NCBI GenBank assembly: GCA_002753745.1
Contig: PEAR01000002.1
Location: 1-47,100, forward strand
Reading direction: 5' to 3'
DNA: 47,100 nucleotides
DNA from: Candidatus Omnitrophota bacterium
GTDB lineage: Bacteria; Omnitrophota; Gorgyraeia; Zapsychrales; Fredricksoniimonadaceae
How positions within the stretch are numbered: the stretch's first letter is position 1; each line of letters starts with the position of its first letter. Of this stretch, positions 12,902 through 34,054 are shown in pieces. Under the pieces are notes generated by a model, which was not told where the DNA came from, did no database searches, and worked only from the letters and a program-made list of their open reading frames with translations. Position numbers and translations under genes: made by a program.

Positions 12902-12930
12902 ATTATACTTAAGGGGTTGCAGGTTGTCAA
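12902..12930 (-). promoter_or_regulatory. Consensus sigma70-type promoter for recA
   Basis: The minus strand reads TTGACA (12930..12925), an exact 17 nt spacer, then TATAAT (12907..12902). This lies about 44 nt upstream of the recA ATG. Both hexamers are perfect consensus. Confidence 0.7.
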
Positions 12931-12981
12931 AAGAAGAGTTATTTGACAGTTTAATTAAAGAAAAGCTATTAATTTTATCTA

Positions 12982-14346
12982 TTATTGCTTTGCGGCAACA
13001 GCCGCAGAAATCTGAGCAACAACATAATTAAGCATTTCGTCCGTCATTCCAGGGTAAACACCTACCCAGAAGGTGTCACGCATTATCTTGTCAGTAATTC
13101 TCAAATCACCAACACTACGGAACCCTTTTTGAGCCTTTCGCATGTCATCGAAACAGGGCTGTCTGACAAGATTACCCGCAAAAAGCATGCGCGTCTGAAT
13201 ACCCTGTTTCTCAAGATGCGCCACGATCTGATCCCGACTAAATCCGGCACCTTCCTGCAATGTCAGCGGAAAACCAAACCAGCTAGGATCAGAATTGCGG
13301 GTGGGCTCTGGCAGGATAAACGTGTGGTTCAAGAAGAAAAGCCGCTCTTTAAGCAAAGACCAATTCTTTTTACGAATCTCAATGAAAAAAGGCAATTTTT
13401 CCAACTGGGCACAACCAATGGCCGCCTGCATTTCTGTAGCTTTAAGATTGAATCCGAAATGTGAATAGACGTATTTATGATCATACCCATACGGCAAGTC
13501 GCCCGACTGAAAAGAAAAACGCTTTTGGCATGTATTATCTTTACCCGGCGGACACGCACAGTCCCTGCCCCAGTCCCGAAATGATTCTATTAATTGTTTT
13601 AACAACAAGTCGTTCGTATAAACGGCCCCGCCTTCACCCATCGTAATATGATGTGCGGGATAAAAACTCGACGTTCCTATGTGCCCTATCGTGCCTGTAT
13701 ATTGCCATTTGCCATTCAAGCAATATTTGGATCCCAGAGCATCACAATTGTCTTCGATCAGCCACAACTTATGTTTAGCACAAAAATCATAAACAGCCTG
13801 AAGATCAAACGGATTCCCTAAGGTATGAGCCACCATGACAGATTTTGTTTTTTTTGAAAGGGCTTCCGAGAGTTGTGTCACATCGATATTGTAGGTTGGT
13901 AAAGAAATATCCACAAAAACAGGCACCGCACCATATTGGATGATCGGGGTGACAGTAGTTGGGAACCCCGCAGCCACGGTAATAACTTCATCTCCCGGAT
14001 TAATACGCCGTTCGCCTAATTTAGACGACGTCAATGCCATAAATGCAAGCAAATTTGCTGATGACCCGGAATTGACAACTGAACAATATTTAACACCATT
14101 AAACGCTGCAAATTCGTGTTCAAAACGTTGTATATAGCGCCCACTCGTCAGCCAAAAATCCAAAGAGGCATCAACAAGACTCTCGAGCTCCTTTGAATCA
14201 AAGACCCTGCCGCCATAAGCAATCCGCTCGCCTGGCTGAAAGACTTTTGAATGGCCAAAAGTTTCACGATAATACTCCTGAACCTTTTCCAGGATCTCCT
14301 GGCGCAACAGTTCCGCTTTACTCATAGCACCTTCGATACCGTTCAT
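12982..14346 (-). CDS. rfbH: CDP-4-keto-6-deoxyglucose 3-dehydrase (E1 / RfbH / DdhC)-like PMP enzyme, 454 aa
   Basis: DegT/DnrJ/EryC1 fold with RfbH-specific strings: [37 protein letters not shown] and [16 protein letters not shown]. In the last string His occupies the position of the Schiff-base Lys, which is the E1 hallmark. The Cys motif [12 protein letters not shown] (C-x-C-x7-C) matches the E1 [2Fe-2S] site. An alternative start is ATG 14325. Confidence 0.8.
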
Positions 14347-14355
14347 GATCGTCGA

Positions 14356-15237
14356 TCATTTATCATACAGCAATAATGAGCGATCAATTTTACCCTGATT
14401 AACCCTATACCAGTTATATAAATCACCTAAGCAAGTATCCATATCCTTAAACTGAAAATGGCCTATCTCATTAATCAATCGCGAATTATCCCCACTATAT
14501 TCAGCTTTCAAGCCGGGCTCAGCGACCTTAATATCAAGATTCTTACCAGAAACCCTTAAGATCTTACGAGCCAATGTCAAAAGATCATGTGTGCGCCCGG
14601 TACAAATATTATAAACTTTTTCTTTCGTCTGGTTCTGCATAAACCAATCAACTATCTTAACTAAATCATCAATAAATAGATAATCAAAGAATACGTTCTG
14701 CTTTATCGTGATTGGCAGGTCAAACAACGCTTTGCAACAAGCATTGGAAATAAAACGGATTTCCCAATCCTCGTATTTACCAAACACCCCAAAAAGGCGC
14801 AGATTATAAATATTCTTTGATTGCTCCAGTTCATTATTGATCAAATATTTTGATAAACCATAAGAGTCACCAGGAATATGCTTGCCAAAATACGCCTCAT
14901 TCATCCTTGGAATCCAGTGTTCACGATCAAACTCCGCACCCGATCCAAAAGTAAATAACTTCCCATAAGAATCAGAACAACGAGAAAGATTTAAAAACAT
15001 ACCCCGATTAGAATTCAAAACCAAGGAAGTGTCTTTTGTCGAATTCCGCGTGGCATTCCAAACTGCGGCATGGATCACTACATCAAAACGATTTTGTTTA
15101 AGATACGCCCGAACTTTATTAGCATCTAAAAGATCAAGCTCTTTACTTCCAGGGGCCTCAATCTGATACTCTCCTGTAAGCTGTTCTTTAAGATTACGCC
15201 CGATAAAACCTGTACCCCCGGTAATCAGAATTTTCAT
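14356..15237 (-). CDS. NAD(P)-dependent sugar epimerase/reductase (short extended SDR), 293 aa
   Basis: MKILITGGTGFIGRNL Rossmann motif and a YGLSK catalytic Y-x3-K. The size is closer to NDP-4-ketohexose reductases (paratose/abequose synthase class) than to 4,6-dehydratases. The specific activity is not assignable. Confidence 0.7.
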   Translation of the reverse strand: MKILITGGTGFIGRNLKEQLTGEYQIEAPGSKELDLLDANKVRAYLKQNRFDVVIHAAVWNATRNSTKDTSLVLNSNRGMFLNLSRCSDSYGKLFTFGSGAEFDREHWIPRMNEAYFGKHIPGDSYGLSKYLINNELEQSKNIYNLRLFGVFGKYEDWEIRFISNACCKALFDLPITIKQNVFFDYLFIDDLVKIVDWFMQNQTKEKVYNICTGRTHDLLTLARKILRVSGKNLDIKVAEPGLKAEYSGDNSRLINEIGHFQFKDMDTCLGDLYNWYRVNQGKIDRSLLLYDK

Positions 15238-15728
15238 ATGTATTTTCGATAAATTGCCTGTACCGTCACCAAATTCTCAGGGCAAAAATCATGCCACATT
15301 AAATAACCAGGATCTGTTGGCATCATCCCGTTATTGGCGGTAAGAAATGTTTCGGTTAAAAAGCACTTAAATAAAAAAGAAATAAAATGCCCTCTTTCAT
15401 CCTGCTCCGGCAGAATCAACTCATTAACAGCAATTGGCACCTTGTCAAAAATAATGCCGGTTCCGATCTCTGTCTCAGCCACTTTCAGGACTCTAGTTTC
15501 CAACTTTTCCTTGAATCGAAGAATCCCTCCCGGCAGATGCCAGCCCTTACCCGCGCAGCCATCATCCCGCCATGACAGAAGAGTGCGTCCTCGCTCATCC
15601 TTGATTAATAAATCGACATTTACCAGAGGCGTAATTCTGCTCATCAGGCGAAACACCTCCTTAGGTAATCCGCGAGAAGGATCGCCGACCTGCTTATTCA
15701 AAATTGCTACAGCCTGAATAATATTCAT
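15234..15728 (-). CDS. Nudix-fold protein, GDP-mannose mannosyl hydrolase (Gmm/WcaH)-like, 164 aa
   Basis: TPLVNVDLLIKDERGRTLLSWR.......GWHLPGGILRFKEKLETRVLKVAETEIG parallels the Gmm layout (TPLVSLDFIV ... W.VPGGR). The Nudix box is degenerate (G-x5-E-x7-KV-A-ET-E-I-G). Confidence 0.5.
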   Translation of the reverse strand: MNIIQAVAILNKQVGDPSRGLPKEVFRLMSRITPLVNVDLLIKDERGRTLLSWRDDGCAGKGWHLPGGILRFKEKLETRVLKVAETEIGTGIIFDKVPIAVNELILPEQDERGHFISFLFKCFLTETFLTANNGMMPTDPGYLMWHDFCPENLVTVQAIYRKYI

Positions 15729-15755
15729 CCCTCACCTTAACGAATAGTGATTATA

Positions 15756-17291
15756 CTAATCAGCTTTACTTCCGAAAGAAAAGACCCGAAGGAACTCCCT
15801 CAAAGATAAGGCGGTGTCCTTTTTTATAACCATAAAATAAAAAAGCTGGAAAAACTTAACTGTCATATAGAAAAAGAGCAGCGCATACGCCGGAATTCTT
15901 TTAACGTTTTCTAAAGTTTGTGTCAAAGAAAATGACGCTGTATCTTTATTAGGACGAGCAAGATTCTTTCTAAAACGTCGGACATCCAGATAAAATGCAA
16001 AGATCGAAAATAAAATGTCTCGCCTGAGTTCTGCCTCACTCATCCCGGGCGGAACGTAAGAAAAAGGAGTCAACTTGAAAGGATTCTCGATAAAAGTCGA
16101 GACACTGTTAAAATTTTCGTATATACCAACAATATTTAACCGGTCTTCCCTCTTTGCAATCTCATATAATTCTGTCCCGGGGTAAGGTGTCGCGTTATTA
16201 AAACGAATCGTATCAATCTGCAAATCACGGGTCATTTTTAGGCAATCTCTGCGCGTCTTCATTGTCTCGCCCGGCAACCCAAAAATAAACGTTGCACTGA
16301 CAATGAATCCGATACTTTTCGCTATTTGCACTGCCTTAACACAATCGGCCACCGTCTCGTTTTTCTTGATCAGTCTAAGCACCTTATCGTCAGAACTCTC
16401 GATTCCAAAGAATATATATTTAAAACCAACAGCATATAATTCTTTAAGAATATCAAAGGAAACATGATCGGCTCTACCCTGGAAACTGAAAGTCATCTTA
16501 TTATTCAGTCCGCGAAGTCGGATTTCGGCAATCAGTTCAGAAAGTTTATTTTTATCAAAAAGAAAGTTATCATCAAGAAAAGCAATGAACCGCTTATTGT
16601 GTTTAACATAAAGCATTTCCAGGTCATCAACAACTTTCCTGGGATCACGAAAACGGTATTTCTTACCCGTAACAACCCGATTACTGCAAAAAATACAGTC
16701 ATAAGGACAGCCCCGGGAAGCCATGACAAATTCCAGATCATATTTCGGAGACTTAAAGAGATGATATGGAAAGGAGGGCAAATTATTAACGTCAACACTT
16801 TCTAATGACTTCGGATTATGAACAATTTGACCGTTCAACCGATAAGAAAGATTCGCTAAAGAATGCAGATCTTTCCCGCTCTTAAGCGCTCTATAGAGGT
16901 TAACAATGACATGATCGGCTTCGCCTCTGACAACATAATCAACTTGAAGAAAATCAAGCATTTCATCCGGCATTGCCGAGGGGTGAACCCCGCCGAATAC
17001 AACGACAGACTGCGGATAAAGTTGTTTAATGATTTTAGCCAATTCCAGGGATCTATTCAAATTGGCGGTTAAAACACTGAAACCAAAAATAAACGGCGGG
17101 TTTAATCTCTTAACAAGGTCAGCAATAACTTGGAGCGTATTTTCTTCAACCTGCTCATCAATAATTTCAGCCGTACAGCCAGCCTCAAGCAATACACTCA
17201 CCAAAGTTCCAATGCCGAGCGGAACAATGACGGGAAGGAATGGTTGAAAAGCTTTTAAGGTATTACGTGAAGAGGCATTAACGAAAATCAT
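15756..17291 (-). CDS. B12-binding-domain radical SAM enzyme (class B), 511 aa
   Basis: N-terminal Rossmann-like cobalamin-binding region (VVFGGVHPS, Y.VRGEAD), followed by SRGCPYDCIFC (C-x3-C-x2-C). Confidence 0.8.
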   Translation of the reverse strand: MIFVNASSRNTLKAFQPFLPVIVPLGIGTLVSVLLEAGCTAEIIDEQVEENTLQVIADLVKRLNPPFIFGFSVLTANLNRSLELAKIIKQLYPQSVVVFGGVHPSAMPDEMLDFLQVDYVVRGEADHVIVNLYRALKSGKDLHSLANLSYRLNGQIVHNPKSLESVDVNNLPSFPYHLFKSPKYDLEFVMASRGCPYDCIFCSNRVVTGKKYRFRDPRKVVDDLEMLYVKHNKRFIAFLDDNFLFDKNKLSELIAEIRLRGLNNKMTFSFQGRADHVSFDILKELYAVGFKYIFFGIESSDDKVLRLIKKNETVADCVKAVQIAKSIGFIVSATFIFGLPGETMKTRRDCLKMTRDLQIDTIRFNNATPYPGTELYEIAKREDRLNIVGIYENFNSVSTFIENPFKLTPFSYVPPGMSEAELRRDILFSIFAFYLDVRRFRKNLARPNKDTASFSLTQTLENVKRIPAYALLFFYMTVKFFQLFYFMVIKKDTALSLREFLRVFSFGSKAD

Positions 17292-17308
17292 TAAAAACTC
17301 CGAGAAAA

Positions 17309-17749
17309 TTACAGATTCTCAGTATGCTCATGAGTTCTAAAAGAAAACCATTTCTGGCCGAAATAATTATACACAGTAGAAATCACAAAACACACGCCCT
17401 GAGCCAAAACCGGATGAAGTCCAAACAAACTGACTGCTACAAACATCAGAGCAAAACCTAAAACCATACTTCCACCATAAACCACATAACACCTTAAATA
17501 TTCTCTTAGAAAATTGCCCTTAGTTCTAAAAACAAAGAATTTCTGACATAAATAAGTATTTGTCATGGCAAGAATATTAACGGGTATCAACAACACCAGA
17601 TAGTGCACTTGATGCTGCCACCACTGGTAGAAAAGAGCGTAAACGCCGACCATAAAAAGAACGTTCCACCCGCCAACCAGCAAATAACGCGTCAGGCGAT
17701 ATAATTCATCCTTGCTCATTCTAGTCAAAGTTAAGCTTTTCATCCTCAA
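17309..17749 (-). CDS. GtrA-family small membrane protein (polyprenyl-P-sugar flippase-like), about 136-146 aa
   Basis: Four predicted TM helices. L.RY.LVGG.N..F....Y..F at the N-terminus and F.F at the C-terminus are typical of GtrA. Sits immediately downstream of a GtrB-like GT2. Start is uncertain: TTG 17749, ATG 17743 or ATG 17719. Confidence 0.65.
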   Translation of the reverse strand: MRMKSLTLTRMSKDELYRLTRYLLVGGWNVLFMVGVYALFYQWWQHQVHYLVLLIPVNILAMTNTYLCQKFFVFRTKGNFLREYLRCYVVYGGSMVLGFALMFVAVSLFGLHPVLAQGVCFVISTVYNYFGQKWFSFRTHEHTENL

Positions 17750-18668
17750 TCACCAGCGGACGATTTTTTACCTGTGTCAATATAGCTCCCACATATTCGC
17801 CAACAATCCCTAGAAATAGTAATTGAACAGCGGAAAAGAAAAACAACCCTATAACTAAGGGAGCTAAGCCTAAATTAAACGTCTGCCAATAAAGCAGCTT
17901 ATAAACAAAATACGCAATGGCCACAAAAAAGCTAAAAAACGCTAAACAAAAACCAGTAAGTGCCGCTAAGCGCAGCGGTAGCTTGGAATGATTAACAAAC
18001 CCTGTCATTGCTATATCGTATAATGTAAAGAAATTATTCTTTGACCTGCCATGTTTGCGTTTATCTTGAATATATTCAAGTACCTTGCGTTTAAATCCAA
18101 TTTCAGCAATAAGTCCGCGGAAGTAAGGGTAAGGGTCATGATACCTTTTTAAACCATCCATAAACTTCCGGTCATACAAACCAAAACCTGTAAAATTCTG
18201 AATCATGTCGTTTGAATCTGAAAAGCTGGATAAAAGGCGGTAATAAAAGCTTCTTAGAACGGCCATTAAAAAGAATTCACGACTTTTTGATTGAACCGCG
18301 ATAACCACCCGAAAGCCAGCTTCCCAATGCCTGACAAAATCAAGAATCATCTCGGGAGGATTCTGTAAATCGGAACACATTCCAACCACAGCATCACCAG
18401 AGGCCTGAAGTAAAGCATTATACGTTGAACGTACTTGACCAAAATTATTGGCATTAAAAATAACTTTAAAGTTTTTGTCCTTCCGGGCAATACAGCGAAG
18501 CATTTCTCGCGTACCATCAGTAGAACAATTATCAGCGACAATTATTTCATAATCATATTCAGGTAGTTTTCCGAAAACAGCCACCAAACGATCATAGAAT
18601 TCCTGCAGATTTTCGTTTTCGTTAAAGCAGCCAGTAATAACACTAATCTTTTTCCGAATACTGTTCAT
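17721..18668 (-). CDS. Family 2 glycosyltransferase, polyprenyl-phosphate sugar synthase type (GtrB/ArnC/DPM1-like), 315 aa
   Basis: ISVITGCFNEN.NL, EIIVADNCSTDGT, SDLQNPPE, and two C-terminal TM helices ending in LGIVGEYVGAI (the GEY.GRI-like tail of GtrB/ArnC). Confidence 0.8.
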   Translation of the reverse strand: MNSIRKKISVITGCFNENENLQEFYDRLVAVFGKLPEYDYEIIVADNCSTDGTREMLRCIARKDKNFKVIFNANNFGQVRSTYNALLQASGDAVVGMCSDLQNPPEMILDFVRHWEAGFRVVIAVQSKSREFFLMAVLRSFYYRLLSSFSDSNDMIQNFTGFGLYDRKFMDGLKRYHDPYPYFRGLIAEIGFKRKVLEYIQDKRKHGRSKNNFFTLYDIAMTGFVNHSKLPLRLAALTGFCLAFFSFFVAIAYFVYKLLYWQTFNLGLAPLVIGLFFFSAVQLLFLGIVGEYVGAILTQVKNRPLVIEDEKLNFD

Positions 18669-19825
18669 TTTAAAACCACCACCTTATTTTTAACTCCCAT
18701 CAAACTTATTTCTTTGAGGATATCATCAGAAAATACCGCTACAGCAATGATAATTACCGGCAAATGATGCTTATTTATAATCTCCATAGGAGAGCATATC
18801 TGTTTACCAAATAAATATCCCCCCTGTTTATGTTTATCATTATCAACGAACATAACGATTTTACATTGATTTAATCGAGATGTCGCCAACAAACGACTTG
18901 CATAATTACCGGCGCCCCAGACAATTATCTCTTCTTGACTTTGTGCCAACCTATCAATAATCACATCAACATTATGAATCTGAGATGTCTGGGAAACATA
19001 CTGTGAGAGCATTTTTGCAGAATGATTACGCCATTCGGAAGCTTCAGCGCACTCATTTGAATATGCACAAAAGATCATCGGCTGCTCAACATTAGAGAAC
19101 TTTACTGTCGTTTTAACAAGATTAACAACTCTAAACCCATATGCAAGACCCAAATTTATTAAAGAAGTTTCATCAAAATGGTTAACATGCTCGCAATTAA
19201 AATAATCGAAAGGAATTGAATCAAACTGGTGATACCGAGAAGCGTCCGGAACACAAACCAAGAAGAATCCATTGCGTCTTATTAATGACTGAAGTCTTTT
19301 CATGATGCCGGGCAATTCATAAATATGTTCAAGCACCCCGGACATAATGGCAACATCATACTTTTTATCGACAGAAAGATCGAAAATGCTTAAAGTAACG
19401 CCCACAATCCCCTTTTCACAAGCATTAGCTATGCATTTTTCAGATGGATCAAGGGCTGTAAGGTTAAAGAAACCTAAGCCTTGCAACTCATACAATAAAC
19501 TTGAATTGCCGCTCCCTATATCAATAATATTTGCTGATACATCACAGATAACTGAGCTTACCCACTTTGCACGATCTTTATAAATATGTGAATTGCCCGG
19601 AATATAGGTCATCTCATACTTAGACATACTGGCGTAATATGCATCAAAATCATCTTGTTTTAAGGAAATATCTGCATAAACGAACCCACAATGACAACAA
19701 GAAACAACATCGTATTCACCTGGCATAAAATGTATGCTTGCAAAAACAAACTTTTGCGTATGCAAAACATCACCAGTTAAATTGCGACATATCGGACAAG
19801 AACGATTTAAATTTCTTATTTTCAT
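18665..19825 (-). CDS. Class I SAM-dependent methyltransferase with N-terminal Cys4 zinc ribbon, about 386 aa
   Basis: CPICRN ... CCHCGF zinc-ribbon pairs. Motif I is IIDIGSGNSSLL. The C-terminal domain is Rossmann-like (IIVWGAGNYASRLL ... FVDNDKHKQG). The architecture recalls NDP-hexose C-methyltransferases. I prefer ATG 19825 to the TTG at 19840. Confidence 0.7.
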   Translation of the reverse strand: MKIRNLNRSCPICRNLTGDVLHTQKFVFASIHFMPGEYDVVSCCHCGFVYADISLKQDDFDAYYASMSKYEMTYIPGNSHIYKDRAKWVSSVICDVSANIIDIGSGNSSLLYELQGLGFFNLTALDPSEKCIANACEKGIVGVTLSIFDLSVDKKYDVAIMSGVLEHIYELPGIMKRLQSLIRRNGFFLVCVPDASRYHQFDSIPFDYFNCEHVNHFDETSLINLGLAYGFRVVNLVKTTVKFSNVEQPMIFCAYSNECAEASEWRNHSAKMLSQYVSQTSQIHNVDVIIDRLAQSQEEIIVWGAGNYASRLLATSRLNQCKIVMFVDNDKHKQGGYLFGKQICSPMEIINKHHLPVIIIAVAVFSDDILKEISLMGVKNKVVVLK

Positions 19826-19861
19826 ATGGCGTTCGTCCAACCTTAAGTAAAAGCAAAAAAC

Positions 19862-21496: not shown

Positions 21497-22643
21497 ATTT
21501 ACCTTTAGTTATCGCATCTTTATCAGCTATGGCGTACAAAACAGTTTCGGTCTGATTATCGGTGTAATGACGCATAAAGAATTTATACCCAGGCACGAAA
21601 GATCTTAACAATAACAACAAATCAAACAAGTCTTCACGCCGGTGATAAACACTAACCGCTAATTTCGGCATCCACTTCTTGATCGTCTGTTCAGCACCAA
21701 GAATCGCATTATGCTCGGCACCCTCAATGTCCATCGATACATACGTCACTCGCCGGCCATTCAAAATATTGTCTATTGTATCAACTTCCATTGAATCAGC
21801 TGATAAAGAGTTGTCTATAATTTCAGAAATACGTGAGCCCCCTTCACGTCCAGCTTGAAAATGAATAATCTGATGTTTATGCCATGCGCCCATGTTATGT
21901 AGCTCTATCTTCTTTATACCGTTAAGGGAAATAACCCCCTCTAAAGTTAAGAGAGTTTTCTTGTCTGGTTCAAATGCAATTATCCCATCATAAACTTTAT
22001 TCGTACGACGATTAAACTCAATAATAGCATTGCCTTTAAAAGCTCCAACATCTAAAAAGACCTCATTGTCTAATAAACTTACAATATCATCATCAAAGTA
22101 CTCTGTTTTAGATTTGATTTCGGAATATAAACTGAAATCACCTGAAATTTTGGCATTAAGGACATTAGCGTAAACACTCTTAGAAAAATCATCTGCCAAC
22201 AAGGAATAGGCCTCATTGAACTGAGACTCATATTCAAGATAATACGGGTAATTAATTTTCTCGCCACAAACTTCAAATCCACGCAGATACCAGAAAGGAT
22301 TCTTTTCACAAGCTCTACTTAACTGAGAAAAAATTGGCTCCTTATATTGAATCCCCGTTGCCACCACAATCTGATACTTTCCACCATTGCTAATAAATTT
22401 ATTCTTAATGCCTTCGTAACTATAAACAGGCAATCCAATATGAGACATCCCCTGCTTTGATAAATCATTATCACAAAAACACACCGGCTCAATGCCGTGT
22501 TGGCGTAAATACATCAAGACGCACCATGCAATTTCACCAGCTCCCCAAAGAATTACCGGCAACGCTGTAGACTTGATTAAAGCGAATATCGCCTCTTCTT
22601 CATGCGCGACATTCTTTATAAGCCCAGAAAGACTATTCAACAT
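21489..22643 (-). CDS. FkbM-family SAM methyltransferase with N-terminal Rossmann-like domain, 384 aa
   Basis: FLDVGAFKGNAIIEF ... IAFEPD ... VSMDIEGAE matches the FkbM layout. The N-terminal VILWGAGEIAWCVL ... FCDNDLSKQG resembles the C-terminal domain of the 18665..19825 methyltransferase. Confidence 0.7.
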   Translation of the reverse strand: MLNSLSGLIKNVAHEEEAIFALIKSTALPVILWGAGEIAWCVLMYLRQHGIEPVCFCDNDLSKQGMSHIGLPVYSYEGIKNKFISNGGKYQIVVATGIQYKEPIFSQLSRACEKNPFWYLRGFEVCGEKINYPYYLEYESQFNEAYSLLADDFSKSVYANVLNAKISGDFSLYSEIKSKTEYFDDDIVSLLDNEVFLDVGAFKGNAIIEFNRRTNKVYDGIIAFEPDKKTLLTLEGVISLNGIKKIELHNMGAWHKHQIIHFQAGREGGSRISEIIDNSLSADSMEVDTIDNILNGRRVTYVSMDIEGAEHNAILGAEQTIKKWMPKLAVSVYHRREDLFDLLLLLRSFVPGYKFFMRHYTDNQTETVLYAIADKDAITKGKCE

Positions 22644-23656
22644 CGCAATTTCCTCGCATCAAAGCCATCGATATTGTCTTTAATATAATGGCCGCTTTTA
22701 TAAAAATCGCACCGCGAACAGGAAACATTATCCTGTTTACGGTCCTCGAGTTGCATTAGCATGAACTTATGCCATGCCTCTGACAGCCACAATCCCTTCA
22801 AATCAATACGATTAACGTTACCAAGATTAGTTCCCCCGTTAAAATCGATACAACAGGGCGCCACATCGCCGTTACTGCGTACCGCCATCGTGGTGAATGC
22901 CATTGGGCAAACGCGCCGGTGTTGCGATTCAGCGTGCATATCCTGGACTGCGGCGGCGGTGTCCTTGTACAGAGCATCTGTAAATCTAGCACCCTCCGTC
23001 ATGGTCCAGTTATGCGGTTTATCAATATAGATCTCGTCGGCCACATCCTGGTACATCTTGATAAAATCATCATTACCCGGACCGTATGTATCCAGCATTT
23101 TTACAGCGACAAAAGGGCGTTCACGGCCGGCCAGTTTCTTAAGCTCCTGCAACATGCTCAAATTATCATGGATGGAACGAATATCCAATTTTGAGCCTGT
23201 AATATCCTCATGTTTCTGTTGATCGGGCGAATACACGGAAACTCGCAAATAATCCAACTGATGATCCACCATTCCCTGCGCGATCTTTCTAGTCAGTAAA
23301 GAAGCATTCGTCGTCGTCTCGACCCTTTCCGCGATATCAGCATGCTTCGCCATTTTAAGCATCTCGGCAAAATCAGGATTAAGAAGCGGTTCGCCATATA
23401 AACTAAGCTTAAGCACTTTAAGTTTTGCCCCGCTCCAAGACCGCAGCTGCTCAATGATCTTCCTGTACAAGCTCAAATCCATATTAAGCCGAAGACGCGA
23501 TAAAAAGTTTTCTTCTTTTAAACTTTGAAAACAATGAACACATCTGAAATTACACAAACTGGAAGGCTCGATCAAAACTGTAAAGGGCTTCTTTAAAGGC
23601 AAAACATCAACAAGGTTTTGCCTGTTGGTCGCATGTAATTGAGTATACGAGATCAT
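22637..23656 (-). CDS. Radical SAM enzyme with SPASM/twitch-like C-terminal Cys motifs, 339 aa
   Basis: SSLCNFRCVHC (C-x3-C-x2-C), GEPLLNP, C-terminal C-x12-G-x4-C (CPMAFTTMAVRSNGDVAPC) plus CSRC. Tandem paralog of the next gene. Confidence 0.8.
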   Translation of the reverse strand: MISYTQLHATNRQNLVDVLPLKKPFTVLIEPSSLCNFRCVHCFQSLKEENFLSRLRLNMDLSLYRKIIEQLRSWSGAKLKVLKLSLYGEPLLNPDFAEMLKMAKHADIAERVETTTNASLLTRKIAQGMVDHQLDYLRVSVYSPDQQKHEDITGSKLDIRSIHDNLSMLQELKKLAGRERPFVAVKMLDTYGPGNDDFIKMYQDVADEIYIDKPHNWTMTEGARFTDALYKDTAAAVQDMHAESQHRRVCPMAFTTMAVRSNGDVAPCCIDFNGGTNLGNVNRIDLKGLWLSEAWHKFMLMQLEDRKQDNVSCSRCDFYKSGHYIKDNIDGFDARKLRC

Positions 23657-24678
23657 ATTCTCAGTTTATCGACAGGGAACCCGTCAACATTGTCCTCTTG
23701 GGGAAACAGTTTAAACCAGTCACAATTAGCGCAAATGCGATTTTCGTGCTTGCGTCCTTCCAGAAGCATCTTCCGAAACGCGAACATATTGTCACCCCGC
23801 CACAAATCTTGCAATGAAGTATCATTCGCATTTCCGATTTTTGTCCCTTTGGCCGGGTCATGAGTACACATTAGACAGTCACCAATGTTATTGATGACCA
23901 TCGACATGAACGGCCGTGAGCAAACAGCGCGTCCAGTATTAAGACTAGCCTGATATTCACGTCGTGACTGGAGCTCCTTGACAGGATCGTTGTAATACAT
24001 ATTCACAAGGTCATTCCCGCTGTAATTCGTCGCATTATGGACTTTTTCCAGACCAATTTCGTCCGCTATCCCCTGATATAAATCAAAGAATATTGTGTTT
24101 TCGTCGCTGTATGTATCAAACATCTTAACAAAGATATACGGCTTTTCGGCGCCTGAGCGATCACGTGTATCGCGCAACTGTTTAATGTTTGCCTGGATCT
24201 TTGCGACAGAGCAATCAGTCCTTGTAACTTCGCGATGATGTTTGTCCTGTGCGGCATAAATAGAAAAACGAATAGCATCCAGGCCGTACGTAATCAATTT
24301 AACCGCGATATCAGGAGTTAAAAGCGACCCGTTTGAGAATGTATCCACCCGTTCGGCTACTTCCGCCTCTTTAGCAATCCTGACCATCTCACAAAAGTCA
24401 GGATTAATAAAAGGCTCGCCAAGCATGGCCAACCTCAAAAGCTTAAGTTTTGGACCTGGCCACTCCTTTAACTCCAGGATCAACTTCTTAAACAAAGCCA
24501 TATCCATATGCTTAAGCGGCTTAAGATCATTGCGCGTATTATCACTGCCATGAACACAAGGAGTGCATCGGAAATTACACAAATTTGTCGGCTCAATAAA
24601 AAGCGACAAAGGCTTTTGTAACGGCAGCATCTCGCGCAAAGGCTTGCGATCATGTGAAATAATGGTAAACAAACTCAT
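23653..24678 (-). CDS. Radical SAM enzyme with SPASM/twitch-like C-terminal Cys motifs, 341 aa (paralog of 22637..23656)
   Basis: TNLCNFRCTPC, GEPFINP, C-x12-G-x4-C (CSRPFMSMVINNIGDCLMC) plus CANC. Aligns along its full length with the neighbouring paralog, at roughly 40% identity by eye. Confidence 0.8.
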   Translation of the reverse strand: MSLFTIISHDRKPLREMLPLQKPLSLFIEPTNLCNFRCTPCVHGSDNTRNDLKPLKHMDMALFKKLILELKEWPGPKLKLLRLAMLGEPFINPDFCEMVRIAKEAEVAERVDTFSNGSLLTPDIAVKLITYGLDAIRFSIYAAQDKHHREVTRTDCSVAKIQANIKQLRDTRDRSGAEKPYIFVKMFDTYSDENTIFFDLYQGIADEIGLEKVHNATNYSGNDLVNMYYNDPVKELQSRREYQASLNTGRAVCSRPFMSMVINNIGDCLMCTHDPAKGTKIGNANDTSLQDLWRGDNMFAFRKMLLEGRKHENRICANCDWFKLFPQEDNVDGFPVDKLRI

Positions 24679-25737
24679 TTAAACAAAATCCTCTGGCGTA
24701 AAGACCTCAGACCAATGAACAGGCAACGGTTTGCCATAAAACTTACTCATATAATTCTTGATAAAATTACTGTCTTCGCCGGACAGACAAAGAGGATTAA
24801 ATTCTTTAAAATGTTTAATACTCATGCCCCTTTTAAGAATAGCAGCAAAGCTTTCTTCAAAAATATTGCCCAGCGAGATATGAATAAATCCGCATGGCAG
24901 AATATCTCCATACTGAGTCAAATGCAGGTTTGAATTAACACTCCCACAGCCCCTTTCAATACCGTACGTGGGAAAAGTGTCGCGATGCAAAGATGGATAT
25001 TGTTGATTAACGTGCTTCATGTAAGCCGCGTCATCAGCATCAATCAACATATCATGCTTACCTTCCCACTCGCCGACAGCATGAGCAATCATGACATCAA
25101 CCGTAAAACCATTCTCCTGGGCAAACTTGGCCATTTCAAGCGTTCTGTCAGTACGACAATTCTGATGGGTGATGCAGGTTTGTATCACCACACTCAACCC
25201 GGCTTCCTGGGCGTTAAACAATGCCTCTTTTGCTTTAAGGTAAGCTCCTTCTTTATTTCTGTTCATATCGTGTTTAGCTGCGTCAAAATCATCGATACTG
25301 ATTTTTACCTTATCCAACCCCCAGCTTCTCAGATCCCGGGCCATTTCTTTGGTCAAAAAATACCCGTTGGTGCTCATTGATAAATGAAACCTGTCCGGCT
25401 GCAATGCCTTGATAACGCTCTGAAGATTTTTTAATATTAATGGCTCACCACCAGAAATGACAAACTGACACAGCCCTAACTCATGGGCTTCATCGCTAAA
25501 GCGCCTCAAATCATCCGGAGAAAGAGCTCTTTCCTTATGCGCAAATCTCGTCGTAAAACAATGCCGGCATTTTAAATTACATGCCAGGTTAAAACCGATA
25601 TCAACTACAGGAGTAGCCAATCCCGCCTTAAATCGATCCGCAATCTTGAGGATCTTCTCAAAAGCAAGAGGCTTCTCTTTTTTAAGTCTTTCGCGACGTG
25701 CGGCCTCAATTTGCTGCTTTTCAATTGATCGACTCAT
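24679..25737 (-). CDS. Radical SAM enzyme (MoaA/NirJ/PqqE-like core) with twitch-like C-terminal motif, 352 aa
   Basis: LACNLKCRHC, ISGGEPL, and C-x12-G-x4-C (CGSVNSNLHLTQYGDILPC). Confidence 0.8.
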   Translation of the reverse strand: MSRSIEKQQIEAARRERLKKEKPLAFEKILKIADRFKAGLATPVVDIGFNLACNLKCRHCFTTRFAHKERALSPDDLRRFSDEAHELGLCQFVISGGEPLILKNLQSVIKALQPDRFHLSMSTNGYFLTKEMARDLRSWGLDKVKISIDDFDAAKHDMNRNKEGAYLKAKEALFNAQEAGLSVVIQTCITHQNCRTDRTLEMAKFAQENGFTVDVMIAHAVGEWEGKHDMLIDADDAAYMKHVNQQYPSLHRDTFPTYGIERGCGSVNSNLHLTQYGDILPCGFIHISLGNIFEESFAAILKRGMSIKHFKEFNPLCLSGEDSNFIKNYMSKFYGKPLPVHWSEVFTPEDFV

Positions 25738-25747
25738 ATTTAATTCA

Positions 25748-27547
25748 CTAGTAATCTAAATGCTTGACTATCATATTTGAATAAAACTCTTCCCTCTCAA
25801 GGAGAGGGCTCATATCTTCAAGAGGCTTTGAAACGATCGTGCCATCCGCATGATGAAACGACATAACACGTGGTGCCCGCACCTCATCAGGAATAATCAT
25901 AACATCACACACCACCGGTCCCTGCATATCTAAAACTTGGCGAATCTTCTGTTTAAGATCTTTTTGATCGGTAATGCGTACCGTAGCTATCCCATATGCC
26001 CCGACAACCTTTGAAAGATCCGGCAAAGTAAGCCCGCTACTTTTATCGGCAACGGTCACACGCTCAAAGCATCCTCGTTGAGAAACGCGAATCGATGCAT
26101 ACCCGTCATTATTCATCACAAAGAATTTAATCGGCAAGTTTAACCGCCTAATAGTTTCCAGTTCCTGAATATTCAGCTGGAACCCACCATCTCCGTCGAT
26201 ACAAACTGTCGGCCTGTTCCCGCTGGCAAGGCACGCCCCGATCGCCGCTGGCTGGGCAAAACCCATGGCTCCGGTGCCCTTATTATGAAACACCCGCTGT
26301 CCGGCTTTCACCTTGAACGCCGTAAGAAAGATTTCACAGGCATTGCCGGCATTGCCAGGCAAAATCACATAATCGCTAGTAAGTTCCCGGGATAAAATAT
26401 CGGAAAAAGCATAAACACTAACCTTCTCAACTTCAGCATGATGCTCAGGTAGAACAAAAGGATAACGCTCTTTCCATACCCGGCACCTGTCGATCCAGGT
26501 TGAACAGTCCCGCGCTTGAAGCGTCCCCTTTCTAGCCAGCACCCTGTGCATAAAAAGGCCAGCGTCCATCACAATCGGCAGATCAATCGAAGGGCCGATC
26601 TTATTAATCTCAGCGGGGTCAATATTCACCATAACTTTCTTTGCCCCTCTTGCTAGCTTATCAGGGGCATACGCGATTAAGGCCATATCTAGCCTCGCAC
26701 CCAAAATCAATAAAAGATCGGAGTTCTGTAAAGTAAAGTTAGCACTTCGAGAAGCAATCATTCCTGGCATCCCGAAATGCAAATCGTGTTCTGATGAAAT
26801 CAGATCAACTCCAAGTCGAGTTGTAAGAACAGGAACGCCGAGAGCATCGATAAACTTTAAGAAATCACCTTGAGCCCCTGCCAACCGAATCCCGTTACCT
26901 GCCAGAATTACCGGCCGTTCCGCTTTCTTAAACAATTCAATAAATGACGCCACCAGGTCTTCTTTAAAACGATCATCTGAAGCCTTTTGATTCTCGGCCG
27001 GCTCATATCCTTTCAAGTCTTTAGGATCAACATGCGCAACTTGAACATCCAGCGGAATATCAAGCCATACCGGCCCAGGCCGGCCAGTCTTGGCTGAATG
27101 TACAGCTTTTTCTAAATGATACCTAACCATCGCTGGATCAGTAACAGTAACCGCATATTTTGTTATTGCTTTAACCAACGATACAATATCGATCTCCTGA
27201 ACACCTAATTGCCTGACCCCGGAGTTGCCACTGATATCCGCGCGCTTAACCTGACCGGAAATAAAAAGACATGGCGTTGAGTCTTGCCAGGCAGCCGCAA
27301 CACCCGTAATCGCGTTAGTCCCTCCAGGGCCAGTGGTTACCAAAGCAACCCCCAGATTATTAGTAACCCGCGCATATGCTTCTGCGGCAATTGCGCTAGC
27401 TTGTTCGTGAAGATTGCCAACAGGTTCAATACCCTCGCAATGCCCCAAAGAATCCACCAAATGCATCGCTCCACCGCCAGGAAGCATAAAAACATGCCTT
27501 ACTCCTAATGACGCTAAATAATGAAACACATAATCCGAAAGCTTCAT
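25748..27547 (-). CDS. Thiamine-diphosphate-dependent enzyme, acetolactate synthase large subunit-like (YerE-like candidate), 599 aa
   Basis: Three-domain ALS layout. The N-terminus reads HVFMLPGGGAMHL ... EQASAIAAEAYAR ... LVTTGPGGTNA. The ThDP motif is IDGDGGFQ-x-VMNNDGY (GDG ... NN). Confidence 0.85.
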   Translation of the reverse strand: MKLSDYVFHYLASLGVRHVFMLPGGGAMHLVDSLGHCEGIEPVGNLHEQASAIAAEAYARVTNNLGVALVTTGPGGTNAITGVAAAWQDSTPCLFISGQVKRADISGNSGVRQLGVQEIDIVSLVKAITKYAVTVTDPAMVRYHLEKAVHSAKTGRPGPVWLDIPLDVQVAHVDPKDLKGYEPAENQKASDDRFKEDLVASFIELFKKAERPVILAGNGIRLAGAQGDFLKFIDALGVPVLTTRLGVDLISSEHDLHFGMPGMIASRSANFTLQNSDLLLILGARLDMALIAYAPDKLARGAKKVMVNIDPAEINKIGPSIDLPIVMDAGLFMHRVLARKGTLQARDCSTWIDRCRVWKERYPFVLPEHHAEVEKVSVYAFSDILSRELTSDYVILPGNAGNACEIFLTAFKVKAGQRVFHNKGTGAMGFAQPAAIGACLASGNRPTVCIDGDGGFQLNIQELETIRRLNLPIKFFVMNNDGYASIRVSQRGCFERVTVADKSSGLTLPDLSKVVGAYGIATVRITDQKDLKQKIRQVLDMQGPVVCDVMIIPDEVRAPRVMSFHHADGTIVSKPLEDMSPLLEREEFYSNMIVKHLDY

Positions 27548-28029
27548 ACGATTCCTTTGCTTTTCACAAGAATGAGGATATCCAGCAATTCTCTTACCGC
27601 ACCACGACCGCCGGAAGCTTTCATCACTAAATCCGCATGATCTATAGCAGCCGGGTGCGCTGAAGCGGGAACCGCAGATAATCCAGCCAGATCAAGAGCC
27701 TCTATATCATTAATGTCATCTCCCATAAAACATACAGCCTCGAGCGCAAGTCCGTTCTTTTGTGCAAAAACTTTCAATGACGCAGCCTTATCTTTGCTCC
27801 CTTTATAAACATCAACAATTCCCATCTTACGCGCGTAACGATCAACCAATGGAGTATCTTCACCCGAGATAAGGGCAAAAATAAGCCCCGCTTTACTTGC
27901 CCGGGAGATCCCCATAATGTCGAGAAATGAAAACTGTTTAAATTCTTCGCCTTCAGGCCCCCAAATAAAGGTGCCATCGGTTAGAACGCCGTCAACATCG
28001 AGCGCAACAGCCTTGATATTTTTCATCAA
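27544..28029 (-). CDS. HAD-superfamily phosphatase, KdsC/YrbI family, 161 aa
   Basis: IKAVALDVDGVLTDG ... ISG ... Y.G..DK ... FMGDDINDIEAL...GLSAVPA.AHP.....ADLV....GGRGAVRE is nearly colinear with Kdo-8-P phosphatase. The substrate is not assignable. Confidence 0.8.
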   Translation of the reverse strand: MMKNIKAVALDVDGVLTDGTFIWGPEGEEFKQFSFLDIMGISRASKAGLIFALISGEDTPLVDRYARKMGIVDVYKGSKDKAASLKVFAQKNGLALEAVCFMGDDINDIEALDLAGLSAVPASAHPAAIDHADLVMKASGGRGAVRELLDILILVKSKGIV

Positions 28030-28049
28030 ACTACTCCTTACGAGTGCGT

Positions 28050-34042: not shown

Positions 34043-34054
34043 ATTTAATTGAAA

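Follow-up and report, generated by a model that had tools for sequence, protein, structure and literature searches.

A partial copy of a widespread sugar-building cassette in an Omnitrophota bacterium, probably making a long-branched, methylated deoxysugar for type IV pili

What sugar would be built by a compact gene string that combines a 3-dehydrase, a thiamine diphosphate (ThDP) enzyme, five radical SAM enzymes and two methyltransferases, and on which acceptor would it end? The string lies in a stretch of 47,100 nucleotides of a Candidatus Omnitrophota bacterium (contig PEAR01000002.1), hereafter the window. The original prediction described positions 12982-28029 as a fifteen-gene sugar-tailoring island ending in a polyprenyl-P-sugar synthase plus flippase. 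The Pfam and NCBIfam assignments agree with its list of domains, and the ORFs lie at the coordinates first given, all on the minus strand like every gene located below; they number 14, and every intergenic gap in this range is too small for a fifteenth. The GT2 synthase and the GtrA flippase are genes 9 and 10, and the string ends with a B12-binding radical SAM enzyme, a Nudix-like protein, an SDR and RfbH. The operon-like packing, also part of that prediction, is real: calculated from the coordinates, neighbours among the 14 genes overlap by 4-29 nt or stand 0-27 nt apart. A consensus sigma-70 promoter upstream of recA (TTGACA-17-TATAAT, 12/12 matches, 12902..12930, minus strand) marks the 3' boundary of the island.

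Many anaerobic bacteria carry a sugar-building cassette of which the island is a real, if incomplete, copy. The core formed by the ThDP enzyme, three radical SAM enzymes and the methyltransferases recurs in 31 other, non-redundant loci (L numbers below) from many anaerobic lineages, so the gene set is not a product of chance, and the island, whose density of radical chemistry had been called uncommon for a glycan locus, is not unique. The literature search turned up no description of the cassette. The three radical SAM enzymes are all present in 28 of the 31 loci, the ThDP enzyme in 23, the HAD phosphatase in 21 and NeuB in 20; RfbF, RfbG and RfbH are frequent, and a short NeuB-like synthase and a KdsC-type phosphatase usually occur as well.

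The last gene encodes the E1 or RfbH CDP-6-deoxy-4-hexulose 3-dehydrase (454 aa, 12982..14346), which matches the NCBIfam RfbH equivalog with 724 bits (cutoff 423) and the Yersinia E1 structure 3BCX with 530 bits. His220 and the four [2Fe-2S] cysteines (Cys193/251/253/261), the features on which the E1 assignment had been made to depend, are present here and invariant in 10 cassette orthologues; judged by these residues, the protein is a true orthologue of E1. Searches of the window with tblastn returned no nucleotidyltransferase, 4,6-dehydratase or NeuB, and no Pfam scan of it returned an E3-like reductase, in keeping with the earlier caveat that the pathway is not self-contained. The absence of NeuB, RfbF, RfbG and an E3-type reductase from the window counts against showing the pathway complete in this genome.

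The ThDP enzyme (599 aa, 25748..27547; TPP_enzyme N, M and C domains) falls below every AHAS equivalog cutoff of NCBIfam. Its best solved relatives are JanthE (8RPH, 404 bits) and PpYerE (5AHK, 295 bits); AHAS reaches about 240 bits. The three YerE-like proteins form one clade, apart from AHAS, in 200/200 bootstraps, the YerE-like reference enzymes compared being JanthE and PpYerE. The sequence data thereby place the enzyme in the family of YerE-like ketone carboligases, as predicted. An identity as IlvB/AHAS, named beforehand as the finding that would speak against this, is contradicted by the clade, the bit scores and the missed cutoffs.

Which branch would this enzyme introduce? The original prediction favoured the two-carbon branch of yersiniose and left the KdsC-like phosphatase unexplained. 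This HAD phosphatase (161 aa, 27544..28029; TIGR01670, 129 bits, cutoff 107) scores under the KdsC and KDN-9-P equivalog cutoffs. In related loci it adjoins a NeuB-like synthase, accompanied in L002, L016 and L047 by a SIS domain, fused or beside it, an arrangement that parallels KdsD-KdsA-KdsC. The pairing of the phosphatase with a synthase and sometimes an isomerase points to a long keto acid as the ThDP donor, giving an acyl-branched sugar. Aldolases are known suppliers of keto acids, and an HMGL-type aldolase replaces NeuB/HAD in L021, while a citrate-lyase-type aldolase is found in a Clostridium butyricum flagellar island. The presumed keto-acid supplier of the cassette is exchangeable between NeuB/HAD and aldolases, which matches the scheme of YerE-like enzymes ligating C4-C8 keto acids to CDP-4-keto-3,6-dideoxyglucose (PMC9306805). 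The sugar proposed here would resemble that erwiniose/caryophyllose scheme, unlike the yersiniose branch. We consider it improbable that the product is a yersiniose-type sugar, with an acetyl or hydroxyethyl branch from pyruvate that is then methylated and deoxygenated, the phosphatase being unrelated or serving a second sugar. Pyruvate is indeed the YerE donor (PMC9306805), JanthE, the closest solved relative, takes pyruvate and short keto acids (PMC12247030), and both NeuB and an aldolase are absent from the window. However, wherever upstream sequence suffices, the HAD and NeuB-type genes usually directly adjoin the ThDP gene, and variants put aldolases in their place. Furthermore, neither the gene-called loci nor the scanned ORFs without a label yielded a CMP-ulosonate synthetase that would give the NeuB product another use, so this product is unlikely to be itself a glycosyl donor.

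The long-branched sugar would then be the substrate of the radical SAM enzymes. Enzyme 1 (352 aa, 24679..25737; CX3CX2C at C53/57/60) is MoaA/BlsE-like, with MoaA, SkfB and cytosylglucuronate decarboxylase as top PDB sequence matches, and has just three invariant C-terminal cysteines (264, 282, 317) in 16 orthologues. Enzyme 2 (341 aa, 23653..24678; C34/38/41) is a BtrN-type twitch enzyme whose orthologues across phyla share 53-79% identity; its invariant C253/271/316/319 align with BtrN residues 167-244 with no net gap (spacing 17/44/2). Its paralogue, enzyme 3 (339 aa, 22637..23656; C35/39/42; 38% identity to enzyme 2), carries C250/268/313/316, invariant in 17 sequences, and both share BtrN's exact cysteine spacing. 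Judged by these cysteines, the three SPASM-annotated enzymes are of the carbohydrate type with single-cluster twitch C-termini, and they are not peptide maturases, the outcome that would have spoken against the original prediction. A secondary-metabolite cluster, aminoglycoside- or nucleoside-like, or a RiPP-maturation cluster in place of a surface-glycan locus is very improbable, even if antibiotic pathways are the best-known setting of BtrN, DesII, AprD4 and TokK-like enzymes and many peptide-maturase models appear among the weak NCBIfam radical SAM matches. Those matches are all far under their cutoffs, and the C-termini hold one auxiliary cluster where full SPASM has two; in addition, the locus encodes neither a precursor peptide nor an aglycone scaffold, genes for resistance or export are missing too, and the cassette consistently adjoins flagellin, pilin, GtrB and GT-C genes.

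Two further radical SAM enzymes bind B12 (PF02310 + PF04055). The first (544 aa, 19862..21496, C-terminal TPR) has QCMT 9CCB, AprD4 and TokK as best solved relatives (PMC12931638), and orthologues of 45-72% identity in L003, L005, L007, L009 and L031. The second (511 aa, 15756..17291) resembles BchE and HpnJ, under their cutoffs, and its hydrophobic segment at residues 470-489 is a probable C-terminal membrane anchor. It has no full-length orthologue in other cassettes, the sole match being a weak one of 28% in L044, and a 47% orthologue in L059 comes after a gene homologous to that of the 796-aa GT-C protein described below. The copy in the window looks like a mosaic, these two genes co-occurring as a separate module elsewhere.

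Methylation is consistent with the nucleotide-sugar stage. The FkbM-family methyltransferase (384 aa, 21489..22643; PF05050, TIGR01444) begins with about 70 residues that resemble NeuD/PglD N-terminal domains and the C-terminal domain of the Zn-ribbon methyltransferase (391 aa, 18665..19840; PF13489, PF08484, PF22674; Methyltransf_14 / C2185-like C-terminus), and this PglD_N-like domain, common to both, presumably binds the nucleotide of the substrate. Cys15/18/48/51 of the Zn-ribbon enzyme are invariant in 13/13 orthologues, and none of the solved sugar C-methyltransferases matches it closely. The extended SDR (293 aa, 14356..15237; PF01370, PF04321), a candidate ketoreductase, is 47-49% identical to the SDRs of the L002 and L039 cassettes. 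The Nudix-like protein (164 aa, 15234..15728) has a degenerate Nudix box, a weak PF00293 match below cutoff (E=0.004), 36 bits to the GDP-mannose mannosyl hydrolase subfamily, and orthologues in L014, L015 and L045.

The predicted polyprenyl-phosphate glycosyltransferase (GT2, 315 aa, 17721..18668) aligns along its whole length with Synechocystis GtrB (5EKP, 146 bits) and with ArnC, as anticipated; its best NCBIfam match is PgfS, and it has two C-terminal hydrophobic helices. Its partner is a GtrA-family membrane protein (146 aa, 17309..17749; PF04138, 59.7 bits, cutoff 26.1). We know of no CDP-sugar-dependent GtrB, which counts against the delivery proposed here. The original prediction set its limit at 28029, but the functional unit extends further upstream, taking in GT-C transferases and a pilin, as far as 36632 or beyond. 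Only 20 nt from the HAD gene lies a 796-aa polytopic protein (28050..30440) with a faint YfhO match; its AlphaFold2 model (pLDDT 87, pTM 0.89) has a predicted GT-C fold, all high-probability Foldseek matches being GT-C (EmbA/B, ArnT, EmbC, AftD, AftA) with modest E-values of 5.6e-4 to 7e-3. Upstream of it lies a candidate protein O-glycosyltransferase with PMT_2 and TPR domains (633 aa, 30472..32373; PF13231, 29.6 bits, cutoff 26.1), which has an invariant DD motif (D42, D43) after its first TM helix, some homologues called protein O-mannosyltransferase by JGI, and a fold search dominated by TPR matches. A 561-aa polytopic protein (32357..34042, about 10 hydrophobic segments) has no Pfam or NCBIfam match and weak local similarity to the 633-aa protein (E=0.005), and a second PMT_2/TPR-type protein with TPR repeats (652 aa, 34674..36632) is 34% identical to the latter over 588 aa.

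Between these genes, with 12 nt separating it from the membrane-protein and GT-C genes downstream, lies a type IV pilin with a Ser/Thr/Ala-rich tail (148 aa, 34055..34501; PF07963, GFTLIE prepilin motif); all are on one strand and no terminator was found between. A paralogous pilin (148 aa, 39242..39688, 90% identity) is followed by a strong terminator hairpin (14-bp stem, 39223-39192), and the context directly upstream of the island comprises pilin, PMT_2/TPR enzyme, 796-aa GT-C protein and pilus machine. The extension of the unit through the GT-C genes and pilin makes the pilin the likely acceptor. Alternatively, the same polyprenyl-phosphate sugar would end up on a polysaccharide (O-antigen, lipid A or exopolysaccharide) in a GtrABC/ArnT-like manner, the pilin being adjacent incidentally; we hold this to be possible, if rather unlikely. 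ArnT and Emb, the best folds of the 796-aa protein, act on lipid or glycan acceptors, the L011 and L034 cassettes lie beside exopolysaccharide genes (YjbH, Bac_transf), and most GtrB-type loci have no pilin within 10 kb. Against it stand the continuity of the pilin with the GT-C string, the presence of two pilin and two TPR-bearing PMT_2 paralogues in one same-strand string, and the recurrence of pilin or pilus genes elsewhere: the window, L005 and L045 have pilins next to their GtrB-type cassette, and L009 has a PilB/MshE ATPase there. YfhO or PMT_2 GT-C genes come after GtrA in L009 and L031. Moreover, the other ending of the cassette serves a protein acceptor: GtrB/GtrA (13 loci), the ending that goes with GT-C enzymes, and cytoplasmic glycosyltransferases of the GT2-TPR or TPR-GT41 kind (5 loci) never occur together, and flagellin genes adjoin three of the latter five (L002, L003, L016). 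With pilins in three loci only and exopolysaccharide genes in two, the acceptor of the cassette is not fixed.

The model we propose, with a rough probability of 0.55 and on sequence evidence, sees in the 14 genes a partial, rearranged copy of a horizontally spread cassette for a CDP-linked, heavily tailored acyl-branched 3,6-dideoxyhexose, which a three-component route of GtrB, GtrA and GT-C enzymes would deliver to type IV pilins in the periplasm. CDP-4-keto-6-deoxyglucose, which would require RfbF and RfbG encoded outside the window, would be converted to CDP-4-keto-3,6-dideoxyglucose by E1 and an electron donor. A NeuB-like synthase, present in relatives and absent from the window, and the KdsC-type phosphatase would supply a 3-deoxy-2-ulosonic acid, which the ThDP enzyme would decarboxylate and add to the C-4 ketone to create a long polyhydroxylated branch. 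The SDR would reduce the branch carbonyl, the three twitch enzymes would oxidise, dehydrate or epimerise the polyol, possibly with C-C chemistry, C-methyl groups would come from both B12 enzymes, and O- or C-methyl groups from the two SAM methyltransferases. The GT2 enzyme would then put the sugar on polyprenyl phosphate, GtrA would help its flipping, and the PMT_2/TPR and 796-aa enzymes would move it onto the adjacent pilins.

In conclusion, sugar tailoring, E1, the YerE-like enzyme, the twitch radical SAM enzymes and the GT2 enzyme survive from the original prediction, while the type of branch, the extent of the unit and its uniqueness had to be revised. The product is probably an unusual long-branched, methylated deoxysugar passed via a lipid carrier to type IV pili, and the cassette that would build it has passed from phylum to phylum and is used for flagellin glycosylation in other species as well.

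The island that we analyse here, at positions 12982-28029 of the minus strand, holds 14 ORFs whose coordinates give junctions of 4-29 nt overlap or 0-27 nt gap; in the whole window, all ORFs of at least 120 aa, bar those nested antisense in a longer ORF, lie on this strand. Pfam and NCBIfam scans across the island reproduce the domain list read earlier from the sequence alone, in the order KdsC-type HAD phosphatase, three-domain ThDP enzyme, three radical SAM/SPASM proteins, FkbM methyltransferase, B12-binding radical SAM enzyme, Zn-ribbon methyltransferase, GT2, GtrA, second B12-binding radical SAM enzyme, weak Nudix protein, SDR and RfbH. The original prediction had counted fifteen genes and had let the island end in a polyprenyl-P-sugar synthase plus flippase; the count is 14, with GT2 in ninth and GtrA in tenth place. 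Apart from these two points the observation stands, and its interpretation as a sugar-tailoring island finds partial support and is extended below. The G+C content is lowered to 0.35-0.45 in the island, compared with about 0.50 on the recA side; over 14000-25000 and 28000-36000, the latter upstream of the island, it is 0.35-0.44, whereas housekeeping genes around these stretches (recA, alaS, his, pilus ATPase) have about 0.50, so that the glycosylation genes may well have been acquired horizontally. AlaS is at least 90% identical to that of a Candidatus Omnitrophota MAG. At 12902-12930 (-), in the 111-nt gap upstream of recA, a sigma-70 promoter of perfect consensus (TTGACA-17-TATAAT, 12/12) lies between the RfbH stop and recA and thereby marks the 3' boundary of the island. 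Within the island, the scan for promoters and terminators gave site counts near the shuffled expectation, and such sites are therefore left uninterpreted; Rfam and tRNA scans of the window found nothing.

The model we propose combines the synthesis of a branched CDP-sugar, its transfer to polyprenyl phosphate and its placement on type IV pilins. We give this full mechanistic chain a probability of roughly 0.55, its weakest links being the identity of the ThDP donor, the radical SAM chemistry and the pilin as acceptor.

Much of the argument comes from a conserved gene set, hereafter the cassette, which was mapped against a reference protein set in 31 non-redundant loci (designated L plus a number). 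Its recurring order is (RfbF, RfbG, RfbH, SDR), short NeuB-like synthase, KdsC-type HAD, ThDP enzyme, radical SAM enzymes 1, 2 and 3, FkbM, (B12-rSAM-544, the counterpart of 19862..21496) and Zn-ribbon methyltransferase. The ThDP enzyme is found in 23 of the 31 loci, NeuB in 20, the HAD in 21 and all three radical SAM enzymes in 28, and absences carry little weight because many contigs are truncated. Radical SAM enzyme 2 has orthologues of 53-79% identity in lineages as distant as Victivallaceae, Syntrophaceae, Elusimicrobia, Thiorhodococcus, Synergistaceae, Desulfovibrionaceae, Clostridium and others, which argues for horizontal spread; all identified cassette hosts are anaerobes or anoxygenic phototrophs. 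The copy in the window has no NeuB, RfbF or RfbG detectable by tblastn in that stretch, and is either incomplete or dependent on genes at other places in the genome, such as kdsA and the rfb genes of O-antigen synthesis.

The E1 assignment of the last gene is confirmed by its score of 724 bits against the RfbH equivalog NF011936 (cutoff 423) and by a 530-bit alignment to the Yersinia E1 3BCX over residues 12-446. The histidine and Fe-S features expected of such an enzyme are also present, His220 and Cys193/251/253/261 all being kept in this alignment: E1 residues 216-228 align with a segment of the window protein that holds His in place of the Schiff-base Lys (His220), and the four cysteines are those of the [2Fe-2S] motif C-X57-C-X1-C-X7-C reportedly described by Agnihotri et al. 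in 2004. The His-His pair and the four Fe-S cysteines are invariant in 10/10 cassette E1 orthologues. An FNR-like or 2Fe-2S reductase that could be the E3 partner (AscD/RfbI) was found neither in Pfam scans of the window nor in the annotated related loci, and a general ferredoxin or flavodoxin may substitute for E3 with the island E1.

The ThDP enzyme could have been an AHAS of amino acid biosynthesis, a reading rejected on two results. It stays below all AHAS equivalog cutoffs (best TIGR00118, 363 bits against a cutoff of 538), as the original prediction of a YerE-type enzyme implied, and a neighbour-joining tree of few taxa, from which Yersinia YerE, ErwE and MMAR_2332 are absent, groups the cassette ThDP enzymes with JanthE and PpYerE in one clade (200/200 bootstraps), apart from IlvB, IlvI and Arabidopsis AHAS. 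Its best solved relatives are JanthE (8RPH, 404 bits), with which it has a C-terminal tail in common, and PpYerE (5AHK, 295 bits), with AHAS at 241 bits or less (plant AHAS about 240); Pfam scans of the window reveal neither an AHAS small subunit nor ilv genes near the ThDP gene. JanthE and PpYerE are described as YerE-like ketone-accepting carboligases (PMC12188165, PMC12247030). Genes for a keto-sugar acceptor accompany the ThDP gene, RfbH in the island and RfbF/G/H in the cassettes of 12-17 related loci, and it is established chemistry that RfbF, RfbG and RfbH yield CDP-4-keto-3,6-dideoxyglucose (PMC9306805). [quoted passage not shown]

In the cassette, the gene adjoining that of the ThDP enzyme encodes a NeuB-family TIM barrel lacking the SAF domain, paired with a KdsC-type phosphatase, and a SIS isomerase domain is also present in the Clostridium, Synergistaceae and L047 cassettes. 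The set of SIS, NeuB and KdsC-type proteins mirrors KdsD-KdsA-KdsC and would accordingly give a 3-deoxy-2-ulosonic acid, which is an alpha-keto acid. Such an acid might instead serve as a glycosyl donor in its own right, which is unlikely because no CMP-ulosonate synthetase was seen in the gene-called related loci or among the unlabelled ORFs scanned. Distant variants exchange the NeuB/HAD pair for aldolases. In a Eubacterium sp. MAG (L021, 727-12892), a GtrB-like GT2, RfbH, one rSAM2-like enzyme (37% identical to that of the cassette) and a ThDP enzyme (41%) accompany an 898-aa fusion of an HMGL-type aldolase and a 3-dehydroquinate synthase, which stands in place of NeuB/HAD and whose second domain hints at carbocycle formation. 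A Clostridium butyricum flagellar island, annotated simply as a paratose locus, combines a citrate-lyase-type aldolase, an "acetolactate synthase" and RfbFGHS (PMC13317340 supplement). The likeness to KdsD-KdsA-KdsC, the lack of a CMP-ulosonate synthetase in what was scanned and these aldolase swaps together lead us to infer that NeuB/KdsC is a keto-acid supply module. The product of the ThDP step would then carry a long polyhydroxylated branch at C-4.

The three radical SAM enzymes 1, 2 and 3 (24679..25737, 23653..24678 and 22637..23656, all on the minus strand) do not score as peptide maturases, none of them reaching any NCBIfam maturase cutoff. Enzyme 2 matches BtrN through its C-terminal domain (44 bits) and, weakly, DesII through its core (24 bits). 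With no net gap in the alignment, its invariant Cys253/271/316/319 fall within the match to BtrN residues 167-244, in agreement with the auxiliary-cluster ligands of BtrN (169/187/232/235). Enzyme 3 is a 38%-identical paralogue with the same cysteine spacing, so that both combine CX3CX2C with invariant cysteines at the BtrN-like 17/44/2 spacing that defines a BtrN-type twitch enzyme. Enzyme 1 resembles MoaA and cytosylglucuronate decarboxylase and, with just three invariant C-terminal cysteines, may be MoaA-like. An assignment to the SPASM peptide maturases was rejected: the 3-4 conserved C-terminal cysteines make one auxiliary-cluster set as against the seven cysteines and two clusters of SPASM, and the maturase scores are far below cutoff. 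In every related locus the context of the radical SAM enzymes is one of nucleotide-sugar genes.

Both B12 enzymes have the class B radical SAM architecture, with an N-terminal PF02310 domain and a PF04055 core, and their best solved relatives, QCMT and TokK, are distant and weak (56-81 bits). The FkbM and Zn-ribbon methyltransferases each contain a PglD_N-like domain, consistent with methylation at the nucleotide-sugar level, since by analogy with PglD we presume that this domain binds the nucleotide of the substrate. A TylC3/TcaB9-type sugar C-methyltransferase was considered for the Zn-ribbon enzyme and found no sequence support, its sole PDB match being an unrelated small methyltransferase (E=2e-4); a weak Methyltransf_14 match keeps the idea of a sugar C-methyltransferase open. 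The Nudix-like protein (15234-15728, -) has a degenerate Nudix box (GGILRFKEKLETRVLKVAETEIG), in which the R-E pair and one Glu are replaced, its sole profile similarity is to GDP-mannose mannosyl hydrolase, and it has orthologues in only three other cassettes. A part in the tailoring of the sugar is proposed for the SDR, all three twitch enzymes, both B12 enzymes and the FkbM and Zn-ribbon methyltransferases.

The delivery part of the model starts with GT2, whose residues 7-308 align with residues 27-326 of GtrB 5EKP (146 bits); this alignment, a second full-length one with ArnC and hydrophobic segments at residues 230-298 bear out its earlier description as GtrB-like. Upstream of the island, on the same strand, come in order a 796-aa polytopic protein (28050..30440, 20 nt from the HAD gene), a 633-aa PMT_2 and TPR protein (30472..32373), a 561-aa membrane protein, a type IV pilin (12 nt from the gene of the latter), a second PMT_2/TPR paralogue (652 aa, 34674..36632), rsmE, three pilin-like (minor pilin) genes, a second major pilin, PilC, the PilB/MshE ATPase, the secretin and PilM/N. 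The AlphaFold2 model of the 796-aa protein (pLDDT 87, pTM 0.89) gives confident Foldseek matches, at modest E-values, that are all GT-C enzymes: EmbA/B, ArnT, EmbC, AftD and AftA. In the fold search with the PMT_2/TPR model, TPR proteins swamped the match list. With GT2 and GtrA inside it, GT-C genes directly upstream and pilins adjoining, the island thus sits within a complete GtrB/GtrA/GT-C arrangement next to pilins, and the same combination of synthase, GtrA and GT-C occurs in L005, L009, L015 and L031. The succession pilin, 561-aa protein, PMT_2/TPR protein and GT-C places the GT-C genes downstream of a pilin gene, as in TfpW-type systems, where pilA is followed by the GT-C gene and a GtrA-like protein is needed (bioRxiv 10.1101/2020.04.19.049825). 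The window lacks the D-Araf genes of these systems.

The two major pilins (34055-34501 and 39242-39688, -) have 148 aa each and are 90% identical; residues 1-60 are the same except residue 3, and the differences are concentrated in residues 97-108 and the four C-terminal positions (…AAAASTSPF versus …AAAASANAF). A hairpin of 14-bp stem, trailed by a T-rich stretch, comes after the second pilin gene at 39192-39223 (-), as is usual for a major pilin under high expression. The rsmE-type 16S rRNA methyltransferase gene (36616-37344, -) stands between the minor pilins and the PMT_2/TPR gene, which it overlaps by 17 nt. Several homologues of the 796-aa protein (P0131, P0139, P0141, P0147 and P0148) are fused to ankyrin repeats and reach 1000-1160 aa. 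The 1171-aa ankyrin protein adjoining the cassette of L018 was considered as a further homologue and rejected for lack of a BLAST match at 1e-6.

Among the 31 loci, the cassette has two endings, which never occur in the same locus. The first, GtrB-like GT2 plus GtrA, is found in 13 loci, often with PMT_2/TPR or YfhO GT-C genes following it (L005, L009, L015, L031); the cassette adjoins pilins in two loci, L005 and L045, and the gene of a PilB/MshE ATPase in a third, L009. The second is a cytoplasmic GT2-TPR or TPR-GT41 glycosyltransferase and is found in five (L002, L003, L038, L040, L047), two of which, in C. chromiireducens (L002) and T. mannitoliphagus (L003), have flagellin genes beside them. 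A flagellin fragment also adjoins the cassette of L016, whose contig includes neither ending. The cassettes of L011 and L034 adjoin exopolysaccharide genes, and for this reason the acceptor is not fixed.

The copy in the window appears to be a mosaic. The second B12 enzyme, B12-rSAM-511 (15756..17291, -), has a full-length orthologue in none of the other cassettes, the sole match being a weak one of 28% in L044. In an unrelated metagenomic locus (L059, JGI 3300042991, 10001-17229), the gene right after that of a homologue of the 796-aa protein (49%) encodes an orthologue of B12-rSAM-511 (47%), and a GtrB-like GT2 and another B12-rSAM enzyme come with them. This grouping suggests that a separate module of GT-C, B12-rSAM and GT2 has merged into the island. 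Another locus, attributed to the same MAG as the window (L058, GCA_015233765.1, contig JADFWR010000046.1, 1-11827), has a 68%-identical PMT_2/TPR paralogue followed by a second radical-SAM-rich sugar island, in the order SDR, rSAM/SPASM, 287-aa protein, rSAM, B12-rSAM, split transketolase, SDR, GT2, SDR and B12-rSAM, with proteins whose relationship to those of the window island is no more than distant.

By analogy, the island would work as a combination of three known schemes: acyl-branched sugar synthesis, three-component extracytoplasmic glycosylation and TfpW-type pilin glycosylation. With the acyl-branched pathways of yersiniose (YerE/YerF), erwiniose (ErwE/F/I/J), caryophyllose (MMAR_2331-2333) and 'gastriose' (MyGE), brought together in the scheme of Steitz et al. 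2022 (PMC9306805), it has in common an E1/RfbH making CDP-4-keto-3,6-dideoxyglucose, a YerE-like ThDP carboligase and an SDR reductase, to which the related loci add a dedicated enzyme supplying a functionalised alpha-keto acid. This supplier would be a NeuB-type PEP condensing enzyme and a KdsC-type phosphatase, joined in some loci by a SIS isomerase, instead of a pyruvate aldolase, and in the related loci NeuB/HAD takes the position of the aldolase in the clusters of the scheme. In the window, ThDP, E1 and SDR are present, and RfbF, RfbG and any keto-acid-forming enzyme are absent. The cassette further adds three twitch and up to two B12 radical SAM enzymes, and the proposed destination of its product is a protein, pilin or flagellin, in place of LPS or LOS.

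The second likeness is to GtrA/GtrB/GtrC, CsbB/GtcA/YfhO and the streptococcal PgfS/PgfM1 protein O-glycosylation, and resides in the full-length match of GT2 to GtrB and PgfS, the GtrA-family protein and the adjoining GT-C (YfhO-like by fold, PMT_2 by profile). In these systems the sugars are simple ones (Glc, GlcNAc, pentofuranoses) taken from UDP donors (PMC11127046, PMC11092751), whereas the donor here would be CDP-linked, branched and heavily tailored, and a product of the same gene string. The third is to the group IV pilin glycosylation of P. aeruginosa, which involves TfpW/TfpX, a GtrA-like protein and lipid-linked D-Araf (bioRxiv 10.1101/2020.04.19.049825); the gene order agrees, with a GT-C of large periplasmic domain just downstream of a pilin, a GtrA-family protein is present in both, and the donor here too would be a polyprenyl-monophosphate sugar. 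The window differs in a sugar unrelated to arabinofuranose, in several GT-C paralogues and in a lipid-linked sugar that would come from a nucleotide sugar through a GtrB-type GT2 and not through DPPR synthase and DprE1/2. The island differs from the known schemes in its keto-acid source, its radical SAM block, the predicted CDP-linked donor of a GtrB-type enzyme and the proposed protein acceptor. As for the radical SAM block, BtrN, DesII and AprD4 have the same CX3CX2C motif and single auxiliary [4Fe-4S] twitch domain, with the BtrN cysteine spacing kept in enzymes 2 and 3; the similarity is local only, three such enzymes would act in one pathway, and the proposed substrates are CDP-linked branched sugars instead of aminocyclitols or TDP-aminosugars. 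Full-text searches of open-access literature, which also covered radical SAM enzymes in connection with flagellin islands and CDP sugars, yielded no paper tying radical SAM enzymes to acyl-branched sugars or describing the cassette.

A bolder reading, which we hold tentatively and consider rather doubtful as a whole, is that the cassette makes a new class of sugar: a CDP-linked branched deoxysugar of about C13-C15, with a polyol side chain from a NeuB-type ulosonic acid, remodelled by the three twitch radical SAM enzymes, C-methylated by cobalamin radical SAM enzymes and displayed as a protein O-glycan on the pilins and flagellins of anaerobes. The remodelling of the polyol would consist of deoxygenation, epimerisation or carbocycle-forming C-C chemistry. 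To our knowledge, very little is known of radical SAM action on bacterial surface glycans, and this pathway, if real, would be the first radical-SAM-dependent one for a surface glycoprotein and would contain the first CDP-sugar-dependent GtrB.

In conclusion, our comparison predicts a new donor source for acyl-branched sugars, NeuB/KdsC in place of an aldolase, and suggests that the "paratose" flagellar island of C. butyricum (PMC13317340) encodes something more elaborate than its name. Clostridium chromiireducens and Thiorhodococcus mannitoliphagus DSM 18266 are cultured and carry the cassette next to flagellin, so that the glycan and the enzyme chemistry are directly testable, and the finding should hold real interest for glycobiologists and for enzymologists working on radical SAM. 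It ties a compact, conserved set of three twitch enzymes and cobalamin-dependent enzymes to YerE-type branching and protein glycosylation in many anaerobic lineages, in which a single sugar module would be served by two delivery routes: one in the cytoplasm, with flagellin as acceptor, and one in the periplasm through a lipid-linked sugar, with pilin as acceptor.
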